DNA from: Ginglymostoma cirratum
Taxonomy: Eukaryota
Assembly (NCBI GenBank): GCA_024137785.1
Contig: JAHRHZ010000070.1
Coordinates: 13,026,570-13,090,569 of the forward strand
Length of the DNA stretch: 64,000 nucleotides
Reading direction: 5' to 3'
The notes under the pieces are model-generated. The model was not told where the DNA came from, did not search any database, and was given only the letters and a program-made list of their open reading frames with translations. The position numbers and the translations under genes are program-made. Shown in pieces: positions 32,604 through 60,439 of this stretch; the first letter of the stretch is position 1, and each line of letters starts with the position of its first letter.

Positions 32604-34943
32604 CTGCAAACATATGGAAGATGGGAGATTAGGAGCCATTTTAAGTCTGATGTGAAATGCAAATGAAATATTTAAAAAATGTATATTAAACAGAAAGTGA
32701 CTCATTATGAAAGTTAAAGGTCCCCACTACAAGCAACTAACAAGACTCGAGAATAGAAGTGTAGCTTGGAAAAAGCATCAATCAGAATGAGTTTGAAACC
32801 CTATATATCAGAACTGGGGTTATGTATTATTCAGTATGATTCGGACTACGGAGCTGTAAGGACAGTAAAACAGATAATTAAAGGAAAATTGAAAAGAATA
32901 CACATACAAACAAAAAGAAAAAGAAAGTTGAGAGTGCAAACAGTCTAAACCCTGGGCAGTTAGGAATGCAAGGCATCACCCATCTCTCCAAAAACACAAG
33001 TAAACAACACAATGAATAGATTCAATATATGTAATGCGCTTAAGTAATTTATTAAAAAAATAAATCAAACCACTCGGGTTAAAGACGGTGTCATTCCACG
33101 AGTGCAGTTTTCACAAATGGGCTCCTGTGTTCAATCAGCGTGACCAAAGGAACTACAAATGTACCACTTGCAGGACTGGGCAAAGCATACAGAGTGAGAG
33201 AAAATACTGCAGGGTACGTTCCTCTGTCTTTGCCTTTCAAACAACGGCTGTTAAAAAAGGTAGACAAAGTTTAACTGAAGTATTTAATCCATTATGGAAG
33301 CACCATTAATTCTGTTAGTCCACTTAAACAGTCTGTGAATGCTGTGAAAATGTTAAAATCCACACAATAGTGTGCCTTTATACATCTTGCCTGTCATTCT
33401 GTTCTAGGGGTTTTAAAGGCATTTAGGCAAATAGCATATTTTCAATTGCTCTAACACCATTTGATACCTTATTTAAATATTCATTGAATCACTGGAATTC
33501 AATTGGAATCTTTAAAACAGGTATAGAGTTAAAGTGCTGTTGTGCTCTGAACGATATGCAATTTTAGTTTTGTTTGGGTAAGAACTAATGTTTTATGGAC
33601 AAATGAGGCTACGGTGTGCATTCAGTGATTCATGCACTATAACTAGGATTATTGACAGCCAATGGAAAGCAGCGACTAATGAGGAATCTTATAGAATGCA
33701 GGTCAGTAAACGGCAATTGGATCGAAGGTACGGGAAAAGAAATGAAAAGGTAGGGCAAGGAGAGAAGGTCATTTCCAATGATTAGAGTTACAGAGCACAG
33801 GAAATAAGGTGTTGTGGGAAACTGCAGCTAATATTACAGTTTTGGGGCTCCCCGTTTACAACATACCATTAACCCTATCAGTCTGTGCAGGATCATTGCA
33901 CACTATACAGCGGGAGCACAGATAAAAATCCATGGTAGTACTACTCCCTTGGCCAATGACAGCAGCAGCAACAAAAGAGCATAATTCTCTCTAAAGTGCA
34001 CATTGGAATAAATTGAGATACTGCAAATGGTAATATTTTTGACACAATAAAAAAAGGCTTCCAGAATCTGTGGGGATCTCAATTTCATCGCGGCTGTCAG
34101 ACTATGACGAACAGATCAACCAACATTCGACAACAATGTCTAGAACACAATTAGCAAGAGATTCGATTCTAATATAATACGCTTCGTAAGAATAAATCCT
34201 TGCCAAGTGTTCTGGAGGGCTCAGCAGTGACGACAGTGTTAGTTGGAAAGAAAATAATTCATGGGCTGTTAAATCAGGTTGGACTGAGATACTGGCTGGC
34301 TTGAAACGTTAAAGAGCAGCGTTTTGGCTCAGGAATTTTCAAACATTTTCTGGAACATGTTTAGTCAAACTTCAAACTGTTATTACTGGCAAGTGATAAG
34401 ATGACACAGTCCCCCAGATAGTGATCCACAAAACCTGGAAAAGCATATTCTTTACTTTTAACGCTGTAGTATATTATTATGAAATCACATGGTATTTTCA
34501 TTCCTCATTTGCAATGTAATTTTATTACTTGTTTGAACATTCATTTCTTTAACATTAAATCAGCACAGGCAGGTGGATTCTGAAAATAAGATAGGCTTCA
34601 TCTATTGGTGTTAACCTATAAACAGTGATAGATAGTGGATGTGTACCAATATGGAACAGTTACTGGGTCTCCACTGTAAAGTGTATCGCTGTGGATGATT
34701 CTGCATGAGATATTGGAAAAAAAGACACTGAAGAAGAATTTAGGAAGTACATCCAAAGAGCCATCTGCCAGATTTGTGAATACTATTCTGATTGTGACTC
34801 AAAAGGTTTTTGCTCCTTTCTAACTTAAGTAACTTCAACGTATTGTACTTGTTCTGTCCAAATCTCAGTCTACCAACACATCAAAACACAGCCAGTTTTA
34901 AGCTCTTGAACGCTGGATATGGCTGTTTTTATTAGGAGTTCTT

Positions 34944-34962
34944 TGTGTGTGTGTGTGTGTGT
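34944..34962. repeat. (TG)n microsatellite, (CA)n in the pre-mRNA, about 125 nt downstream of the candidate 45-nt exon
   Basis: Direct reading. Confidence 0.85.
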
Positions 34963-35086
34963 CTACTCTTGCATTTGAAAGTTAATTGTATTTATTTGGG
35001 TTCGCTTAAAGGCTGCTATGAAATGGAGACTCAATTCAGATCAGACAATAAAAGGATCACTTCTGGGTGGACCACACTCCTGTCAC

Positions 35087-35131
35087 CACTTGGCAGATTT
35101 TCTGTCTGTGTGTGTGTGTTTCTTTTAAGTA
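35087..35131 (-). CDS. KCNMA1: Candidate KCNMA1 45-nt alternative exon: (L)LKRNTHTQTENLPS(V)QDENPS
   Basis: Very strong pyrimidine tract (long T-run, then ctcctttttcaaacag|TA CTT AAA AGA...), ending CCA AGT G|gtgaca. It is phase-1 symmetric and stop-free, with UGCAUG at 35177-35182 upstream. The donor is only moderate. Confidence 0.6.
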
Positions 35132-58100: not shown

Positions 58101-58401
58101 AGGTGGCTTTGGAATGAATGCAATGCTCAGTTTATCTTTCTTCCTTGTGCTATGTTGAACCAATAAAAGCTCATGAGCTCCAAACCTGGCTTCTACTCCT
58201 TCCTTTAACTGAATTTTTATGTATGCTGGTATCTTGCCGTTGGGCTGCTGTATTTTCTACAGATTCAAAGTGATCTGTGGGCAGTGCTGAAGATGATGTG
58301 TACGTATGATGTAATTGCTACACATGCAACATAAAAATCTCTTGCTTAAGGTAGACAGGTTGGATCGCACTCTGGGCAACAGGGAACCCGTTTTTACTCA
58401 C

Positions 58402-58410
58402 AATAGATCA
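58402..58410 (-). CDS. KCNMA1: KCNMA1 9-nt alternative microexon TGATCTATT, giving KR-LIYF-QDE or KR-LIYS-KMS when joined to STREX
   Basis: Minus strand reads ctgcacactggtag|TGATCTATT|gtgagt. It is phase-1 symmetric, lies between the CKACH exon and STREX, and translates to the known IYF/IYS insert. Confidence 0.9.
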
Positions 58411-60439
58411 CTACCAGTGTGCAGTTAAATTATAGAGTTTCATGTTCCAGGGCAGCAAGGAGAAAAATAAATTAAAAATACATCAATCATCAAAAGGTAT
58501 TGCAATCATTTCATACATGGATTCTCATGTGTTTTGAGTTCCACGGAGAAAAGGTCTATGTGTAACTGTGTTTTGTGCTTTCTCTTTTCCCATTACATTT
58601 TCTACAATATGAGACACACCTAGAAGGGAAAATAAGTTCATACATACAGCAGAAATATAGATATGCACCAAACTTCAGCATTTTTTCTACCAATTTCCTT
58701 CTGGGGGGGGGAGCGGGGGTGGAAATCTGAACCAGCTATTGCAATTCTGCCCCCACCCCAATCTCACCACCTAGAAGAAATTTGTCTTTGCAAATTCTGG
58801 ATGATTCTTTGAATAATTTAGATTACAATGAAAAAATAATGATACTCTTAAGCTGATTTTTTTTTTGTTGTGCATTCAAACGGCCAGAATTTTTTTTTGA
58901 AAAAAGATAAAGCTACTCACTTTAATTATTCTTGACCTCTGCGGATGCGCCAAGTTTTTTTTGTTTAAATTATTAATAATGGGCCTAAAAGGTTTGGACA
59001 AGTGGCTAAGTAGGTCAGGTATATGTTGACAATGTGACATGACTAATGCCAATATAATGATAAATCTGCTGGACTTTCATTCTAAATGTGACAGCAACTA
59101 CTAAGATGTGTGCTCTTATCAAAAAAACCTCTGCATTTCTGGTACTGTACTCAAATATTGCATTTTGCATGCTCCACCATTATGGGCTGTGAAATACAAT
59201 GCATTTGGCAAGGATTTGTCTTTGTTTTTCCAGCTGACTTGGAGCATTACCTCTAGAGTTTTCAAACAGCGGTAGTTTAGTTCTGACAAGCTCTTTCTTC
59301 AGCCTCACTAATCATGTCATTTTATTTATACATCTGTTCTACATCACGTCATTAATAGACTGAAATTTGGACTCCTCATTTTAGGCATTCCGTTATTCTC
59401 CAAGTATATTTTTAATTTTTTGCATGCAGCTTAATCACATTAATGCTAATTATTTTTCGCTCGCCAATCTGCAGCATTCATTAATTCTCCTAGATTTCCC
59501 ATTATGTATTAATGGCATAATGTTAATCTAAACCTGCCTTCCTTTCAGGTAATTAAACTCCCTTTCATATGGCCTGAAAAATGTTGGTCTCCGTTTAATT
59601 TCTCTTGCCTTGGTTATTTGACGAGTTAAAGAGGCGGCAAAAGACATTGGTGGCACAGTTACATTGCCACAAGCAGATGGCCAACAGAGGCTAGGCACTA
59701 TGCCACTGAGCAAGTAGGAAGATATATCAAACAAACTATTCCACAGCCACTCTTCTGCAAACTTAGTTGGCCAAGTTCTGAATAGCCTGGAGCCAGTAAT
59801 TGGTCCACTCCACTGGCTGCAGAGAGCAAGGGGCATGGGGGGAGATGGGAAGAGTTTCTGCCTTTACAAATTGAAGGCGAAATCCAAGTTTTATTCATTT
59901 TGATGCACATTAGGAGTAAAAACATTCATATTCTGCTCTAAAATAATAATTTCATGGTTTACAGATGTCTGAAAAAAATCGTTGCTTTTACAACATCAAA
60001 AGTTGACTTGTAATAATTATTAGGTTGAGTTTTCACACACGCTGGTCTTCATCCACAACTTATGTAAAAGGTTTATATCTTGTAACAAACTTTATGGCAC
60101 TGGAACCAAATTCTGGCAAATAGGGGCCATAATTAATGGTGGAGCTGCAATAAGGCATGCACCTGTACATTTTAGAACTGTTGAAAATGAGTGTGTAGCT
60201 GTTGGATTGCTGACATTTATAGTTTGTTGTTTATCACAAGGTGAGTAAATGCAGGGTTAACTACAATAATGTACCCCACTACTGACCAGCAGTGTCAAGC
60301 TAATGACAGAAAAAGATCTGATGTCTCACATGCCCTCCACCAATAACTATATTATTTTTATGCATTCAAAATGCACATTGATTGCTACATACTAATAGCA
60401 AGTTAATAATGCAAAAAAAAGGATGAAATTATTACTTAC

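Follow-up and report, generated by a model that had tools for sequence, protein, structure and literature searches.

Three intact cassette exons and the probable remnant of a long exon at splice site C2 of the BK channel gene KCNMA1 in the shark Ginglymostoma cirratum

Introduction

Which exons does a shark carry at splice site C2 of KCNMA1, the gene of the BK channel alpha subunit (Slo1), and how old is that set? The site, defined as site 2 or C2 (PMC3840924, PMC10486799) and also known as the STREX site, takes in mammalian KCNMA1/Slo1 either no insert, IYF, STREX-1, STREX-2 or an exon of 28-29 residues (PMC3840924, PMC11758846, PMC3393747). We analysed 64,000 nucleotides (nt) of the Ginglymostoma cirratum contig JAHRHZ010000070.1 (positions 13,026,570 to 13,090,569), called the window throughout, in which an earlier note, made from the letters alone, had placed an array of three C2 cassettes and a candidate fourth. 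We report that the site most probably holds three intact cassettes and a broken long exon of 293 nt, and that the 45-nt stretch taken for a fourth cassette is likely a product of chance; to this reading as a whole we give a probability of about 0.85. Positions, splice sites, frames, homology and breaks were observed directly in the DNA, and from relatives we infer how the site would be spliced in this shark.

Results

The intron interrupts the RCK1-RCK2 linker of KCNMA1

The array occupies an intron of 27,836 nt with GT...AG ends, between minus-strand exons at 60516-60440 and 32603-32510, and both junctions are in phase 1. Comparison with BK alpha proteins identified the gene as KCNMA1, with five constitutive exons that follow one another on the minus strand as they do in the proteins. 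Over the 233 residues of these exons, 232 are identical in Stegostoma tigrinum, the closest match, 231 in Chiloscyllium, Hemiscyllium and Heterodontus, 228-229 in catsharks, 223-226 in rays and skates and 215 in the chimaera. On these identities the animal is a shark and likely a carpet shark. The reference BK protein contains the domains Ion_trans, Slo-like_RCK, BK_channel_a and Slowpoke_C. The junction corresponds to residue 660 of reference protein P0004, C-terminal to BK_channel_a (509-596) and N-terminal to Slowpoke_C, which places it in the RCK1-RCK2 linker, between two basic clusters, and identifies it as site C2. Exon order, protein matches and linker position thus bore out the previous assignment of the locus to the C2 linker site of a BK channel gene from the shark group.

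Table 1. Features of the C2 intron and its flanking exons, in order of transcription (positions in the window; scores and matches as described in the text)
Feature	Position	Strand	Evidence
Upstream constitutive KCNMA1 exon (phase-1 donor)	60440..60516	-	26/26 residues as in Scyliorhinus canicula isoform X6
9-nt cassette microexon (IYF exon of the literature)	58402..58410	-	donor GTGAGT; homologous annotated inserts
CaRRE1-like element between pyrimidine tract and AG of the STREX acceptor	55111..55123	-	at most one mismatch to the PMC3246316 consensus plus AG
STREX cassette exon, 174 nt	54937..55110	-	donor GTAAGT; 98% identity to S. canicula X6; 408/409 candidates matched
33-nt cassette exon (11 residues)	40857..40889	-	best splice-site score in the intron; homologous inserts
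Decayed long cassette exon, homologous to the C2 exon of ~97 residues in bony vertebrates	35223..35515	-	profile match, pairwise alignments, intact acceptor
Consensus GTAAGT inside the decayed exon, putative donor	35295..35300	-	phase 1; with the decayed exon's acceptor, 215 nt in this shark and 213 nt in organism D
Highest-scoring AG/GT stretch of 45 nt, probably the previous candidate; unsupported as an exon	35087..35131	-	weak donor; score as expected by chance; no match among known inserts
Downstream constitutive KCNMA1 exon (phase-1 acceptor)	32510..32603	-	sequence and protein match

Three cassettes are homologous to annotated inserts

Within this intron, cassettes of 9, 174 and 33 nt are each flanked by AG and GT, have lengths that are multiples of three, contain no stop and are symmetric in phase 1. 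These properties are common in the intron: 94 stretches of 9 nt, 49 of 33 nt, 38 of 45 nt and 10 of 174 nt passed the filter for AG/GT and an open frame, and the splice-site score of the 33-nt exon was equalled in 13 of 40 shuffles. They are therefore not evidence alone, and the three cassettes rest on homology to annotated isoforms. The 9-nt microexon lies upstream of STREX and encodes the known IYF insert, which is present in models of catshark, thorny skate, chimaera, gar, lungfish, birds and chimpanzee. The 174-nt cassette is cysteine-rich and symmetric in phase 1, as STREX is. The 33-nt exon encodes an 11-residue insert that follows STREX and is kept in fishes. An identical insert is found in S. 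canicula X14, Chiloscyllium X7 and S. retifer AWO14627.1, related ones in rays, skate, chimaera, bichir, gar, bowfin, both teleost paralogs and lungfish, and none in a tetrapod among the best 120 of 333 matches; the skate cDNA KY355737 also carries it (PMC10486799, Table 1). Since the three cassettes are present in RefSeq/UniRef models, and the 33-nt insert in that published table, they are not new, and the earlier note overstated their novelty.

Three details of these exons were also recorded. At 54964-54962 (minus strand) STREX encodes alanine, where the other compared STREX inserts have serine, except for divergent teleost and frog forms; this is a private change or an allele at a possible phosphorylation site. 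An AG inside STREX at 55026 (minus strand) would, with the donor unchanged, yield a stop-free short form of 90 nt, which was found in none of the fetched proteins. Finally, a UGC triplet lies 11-14 nt upstream of both the 9-nt exon (58423-58421) and the 33-nt exon (40903-40901) on the minus strand. Such triplets are known from neural microexons dependent on SRRM3/4; the motif is short and its presence may be due to chance.

Because all three cassettes keep the frame, any subset of them can be added to the linker. Seven of the eight combinations were seen among 36 cartilaginous-fish proteins, a sample, mostly of predicted models, that covers part of those in the database (the main shark cluster has 100 members, of which 15 were listed). 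Eleven of these proteins had no insert, one the 9-nt insert alone, ten the 33-nt insert alone and eight the 174-nt insert alone; two combined 9+33, three 9+174 and one 174+33. The eighth combination, 9+174+33, occurred in none of the 36 and was present in a gar model. By comparison with these relatives, each intact cassette would likely add whole codons to the RCK1-RCK2 linker, and splicing is likely to combine the three in up to eight ways, as it does in related fishes. The counts are in agreement with the combinatorial use that had been proposed for independent cassettes. The proposed maximum of 16 isoforms did not stand; as the 45-nt cassette is unsupported (see below), the ceiling is eight.

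The long C2 exon of bony vertebrates has a homolog in the intron

The previous inventory, in which these three cassettes hold, had missed a further element at 35515-35223. A profile built from 16 aligned bony-vertebrate long C2 exons gave a single match in the window, at 35421-35233 (31 bits, E 8e-11), compared with 4.6 bits for the best of 30 shuffled windows. Two of three teleost long-insert queries matched 35400-35224 above all 30 shuffles, and pairwise alignment gave 56 gapless residues at 45% identity with Rana (E 1e-10) and 54 residues at 44% identity with the bichir Polypterus (E 3e-8). The acceptor at 35515 is in phase 1 and scored 5.1 versus 3.8 for the constitutive acceptor, and the first four residues read from it are those of bichir and tarpon. 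The element lies in the right intron, on the right strand and in the right order, after the 33-nt exon, where teleost models also place the long insert. With its 3' end set at 35223 from the frog alignment, it measures 293 nt, or 291 without two extra bases. Sequence homology and position thus assign it to the long C2 exon, which our search found in teleosts, gar, bichirs, Rana, Lithobates, Xenopus and the parrot Guaruba. No cartilaginous fish was named among 90 long-exon matches, and the profile had no match in the 36 cartilaginous-fish proteins.

The reading frame of the long exon is broken

Read from its acceptor, the exon meets a stop at codon 6. The homologous reading spans three frame segments, separated by the two extra bases, with a further stop at 35422-35420, and the inferred ancestral donor position reads GG. 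No open phase-1 frame runs from acceptor to donor, and we therefore class the element as a decayed homolog.

We compared DNA contigs of four relatives (organisms A, C, D and G) over 34975-35700; organism G covers only 35175-35375, and gaps outside that range carry no weight. In organism A, the closest, there is no deletion at the two extra bases, which are thus unlikely to be assembly errors. In organism C about 10 bases are left out at the acceptor. Forty substitution rows were listed, 28 in the 293-nt exon and 12 in 433 nt of flanks. Counted by hand, divergence from organism D is at least 28/293 (at least 9.6%) in the exon and at most 34/433 (at most 7.9%) in the flanks, this upper bound being obtained by assigning all unlisted organism D differences to the flanks. 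The 28 substitutions fall on the three codon positions as 13, 8 and 7, with no third-position excess. By comparison, organisms C and D contain 84% of the sampled 31-mers around STREX, as expected of a constrained exon. In addition, a motif that is invariant in the 16 aligned long exons, though altered in two catfishes, has changed in one way in the window, in another in organisms C and D, and in a third in organism G, as read by hand from the difference tables. Within the listed differences, the remnant therefore diverges like an intron and without codon-position bias, which is the pattern of a pseudoexon. None of the 36 annotated proteins contains it, although forms with a stop would not be annotated as proteins. 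These comparisons suggest that the long exon is likely no longer used here and is decaying neutrally in sharks.

Alternative readings of the remnant

Could the match at 35515-35223 be a chance resemblance or a fragment of a repeat? One of the three single-sequence queries did not exceed all shuffles and Pfam offers no family for the stretch, as such an origin would allow; a profile score of 31 bits where 30 shuffles reached at most 4.6 and a gapless alignment of 56 residues at E 1e-10 argue strongly the other way, as do the correct intron, strand, order, phase and first codons. Organism D also has single-copy depth over the remnant. This explanation is effectively refuted. A more serious alternative is that the long exon is still alive in a shorter form, cut by the GTAAGT donor at 35300 to an in-frame cassette of 213 nt that some sharks still splice, the 215-nt form of this shark containing an early stop and acting as a poison exon that lowers BK mRNA. 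The acceptor is indeed still strong, the internal donor matches the consensus completely and is in phase 1, and organism D, which lacks the extra bases and the stop at 35422-35420 and has no listed change at acceptor or donor, would read 213 nt in frame. However, the motif invariant in 16 bony-vertebrate exons has changed differently in the window, in C and D, and in G, third positions show no excess of substitutions, organism C has lost bases at the acceptor, no such insert occurs in the 36 proteins, and the 18-22 unlisted differences of organism D could include a stop. We consider a living, shortened exon unlikely, and neutral decay is the best reading of the remnant, judged on sequence.

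An extended version of the alternative would start from an ancestral array of 9 + 174 + 33 + ~291 nt whose long exon was cut twice by new internal donors, once into the mammalian 29-residue exon and once into a shark exon of 213 nt that some species still splice in frame, which in this lineage would then have become, by two added bases, a poison exon of 215 nt that holds BK expression down. This scenario is doubtful. By eye only, the rat 29-residue C2 insert (PMC3393747, Table 1) resembles the first third of the Guaruba long exon (P0395); on that likeness, the mammalian exon would be a parallel truncation of the long exon.

Several points weigh against neutral decay of an ancestral exon beside three intact cassettes. 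Organisms C and D lack both extra bases (one near 35500, one at 35407), and at 35422-35420 organisms A, C and D read a sense codon in place of the stop. Organism D has no listed change at the acceptor, so its frame through the exon may be open. The comparison covers the listed differences, with 46 substitution and 5 gap rows beyond them. On the side of homology, the third single-sequence query was equalled by 3 of 30 shuffles, nine of the 90 long-exon match rows have no species name, and splice-site scores came from a simple weight table. As for splicing, the isoform evidence consists mostly of predicted gene models and the 36 proteins are only a sample; no RNA run of this shark was found and no junction was seen directly. 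A search of sequencing runs with 31-mers gave 24 runs, four of which supplied the contigs compared above. The 14 runs with strong matches were DNA or did not state their kind. Six RNA runs contained 16% of the sampled words and three runs guessed to be RNA contained none; these nine count neither for nor against splicing.

The 45-nt candidate is not distinguishable from chance

The 45-nt cassette had been put forward without coordinates; all 38 stop-free phase-1 45-mers of the intron were tested. The best scorer, 35131-35087, has a strong pyrimidine tract, an acceptor score of 4.5 and a weak donor. Thirteen intron segments of 3-300 nt score as high or higher; 40 shuffles gave 15.8 such segments on average, and the opposite strand gave 15. 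A 45-mer as good arose in 9 of 40 shuffles. Among 126 distinct inserts, drawn from the 439 of 451 fetched proteins with both flanks, none resembled this stretch (score 22; 19 of 20 shuffles as high). When all 38 candidates were compared with the same inserts, the top scorer (56896) proved proline-rich, with poor splice sites, and a 45-nt insert was present in none of the 36 cartilaginous-fish proteins. The core of 35131-35087 is an AC-rich repeat, matched by unrelated contigs too. With splice sites not above chance and no homolog, it is unsupported as a cassette and likely a product of chance, and this part of the earlier note was not borne out.

A model of four independent cassettes, with a real 45-nt exon and up to 16 linker isoforms, is accordingly very improbable. 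What speaks for it, besides the acceptor and its pyrimidine tract, is that AG and GT show no listed change in organism D, as expected at about 8% divergence, and that one Xenopus model has a 15-residue insert; the latter, however, ends like an intron end and looks like an acceptor extension, and in the shark an in-frame stop lies nine codons upstream of the downstream-exon acceptor. Together with the chance-level total score, the low-complexity core and the lack of a homolog among 126 inserts, this leaves three cassettes. Additions at the downstream acceptor, apparently from upstream acceptor extension, were noted in chimaera models (P0140, P0141; 2 residues) and in the Xenopus model (P0424; 15 residues). 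The shark sequence rules out an extension of either type here.

Predicted regulation and effects of the inserts

STREX has a CaRRE1-like element at its 3' splice site, which on sequence assigns it to the exons of this type. The element has one mismatch, and no second site in the window comes within one mismatch of the consensus; since 0.93 chance matches are expected there, only its position is informative. In the mammalian system, STREX is skipped upon depolarisation by way of CaMK IV and of CaRRE elements to which hnRNP L binds (PMC3246316, PMC4320613), and the exon speeds activation, left-shifts gating by up to 50 mV and alters kinase control, whereas deletion of the three-residue insert alone affected currents little (PMC3840924). 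The 9-nt exon together with STREX shifted gating by about 50 mV in zero calcium, and STREX alone did not (PMC11758846). Regulated inclusion and left-shifted gating of STREX have been demonstrated in mammals only (PMC3840924, PMC11758846, PMC3246316). The two parts of a nuclear localisation signal, which has been tested in skate BK, also lie on either side of C2 (PMC10486799).

In the shark, STREX would by analogy move activation towards more negative voltages and alter regulation by kinases, and the 9-nt exon added to it would change gating further. The two-part nuclear localisation signal straddles C2, and its spacer would become longer with any insert. STREX skipping is likely to be activity-dependent through the element at its acceptor. 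The previous claim that C2 tunes Ca2+/voltage sensitivity and kinetics, made beside the role of BK channels in hair cells and electroreceptors, needs limits: the three-residue insert alone has little effect, a review describes the contribution of splicing to hair-cell BK kinetics as minor (PMC10018040), and skate ampullary clones lacked STREX (10.1101/274449).

Other features of the window

Three more constitutive KCNMA1 exons lie on the minus strand at 28803-28926, about 21440-21658 and about 15890-16084. Later KCNMA1 exons of the reference proteins were sought between 15878 and 1 and none was found, so the next intron is longer than 15 kb. Stretches at 5038-5913, about 36900-37200, 42450-42730 and 61888-62211 look like decayed ends of long interspersed nuclear element (LINE) retrotransposons; four repeat-like open reading frames tested with Pfam gave no match.

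Discussion

The C2 site of this shark resembles those of other vertebrates to different degrees. With mammalian site 2 it shares the gene, the linker position, the 9- and 174-nt exons, their combination and the CaRRE1-like element at the STREX acceptor; unlike mammals, it has the 33-nt exon, present in no fetched tetrapod protein, and no intact counterpart of the 29-residue exon. All three cassettes are shared with skate and catshark BK (KJ756351 and KY355737 in PMC10486799; S. retifer AWO14627.1) and with RefSeq/UniRef isoforms of sharks, rays and chimaera. Of the long exon, the cartilaginous-fish models contain nothing, nor do their 36 proteins contain a 45-nt insert. The teleost and gar arrays, 9 + 174 + 33 + long exon, have the order seen in the shark and are used in combination.

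Intact long exons occur in bichirs, gar, teleosts, Rana, Lithobates, Xenopus (99 residues) and the parrot Guaruba. The Xenopus exon is known as xSlo99. The shark copy agrees with them in its place after the 33-nt exon where both occur, its phase-1 acceptor, its first codons, its length of ~97 codons and two conserved blocks, and differs from them in being frameshifted and interrupted by stops, in the loss of its donor and in changes at residues that are otherwise invariant.

The site continues to acquire exons in single lineages, as illustrated by C2 inserts of 51 and 24 residues in birds (P0178, P0180, P0202) and of 27 residues in teleosts (P0318, P0343). The extra teleost exon left no detectable trace in the shark intron: three single queries and a profile gave nothing above shuffles, nor did queries with the bird 51- and 24-residue exons, at a sensitivity at which a lungfish 33-nt control failed, and a short exon in advanced decay may therefore have escaped detection.

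The proposal that the array predates the split of sharks and bony fishes holds through homology, all three cassettes being annotated in chimaera, sharks or rays, and in gar; it does not follow from cassette independence, on which it had been founded. In the jawed-vertebrate ancestor the long exon probably functioned as part of the array, and bichirs, gar, teleosts, frogs and at least one bird have kept it intact. We therefore consider it likely that the exon set dates from the first jawed vertebrates and that sharks are losing one member of it. The cassette array itself is known and annotated, and the shark remnant is a small, unreported evolutionary detail: no report of it was found in the literature searched, which left out the main skate, shark, teleost and Xenopus cloning papers and the cross-species linker table in the supplement of PMC10486799.

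The remnant would matter more if it were spliced as a shortened or poison exon. As a decaying exon, it indicates that a linker insert of ~97 residues, otherwise known in bony vertebrates only, is older than the divergence of sharks. Its loss would be traceable stepwise in living sharks, with frameshifts in some, acceptor damage in another and possibly an open frame in a third, a dated loss of a cassette exon in an ion-channel gene linked to electroreception and hair-cell tuning. It also offers a testable common origin for the frog, fish and mammalian C2 inserts, which are usually treated as unrelated.

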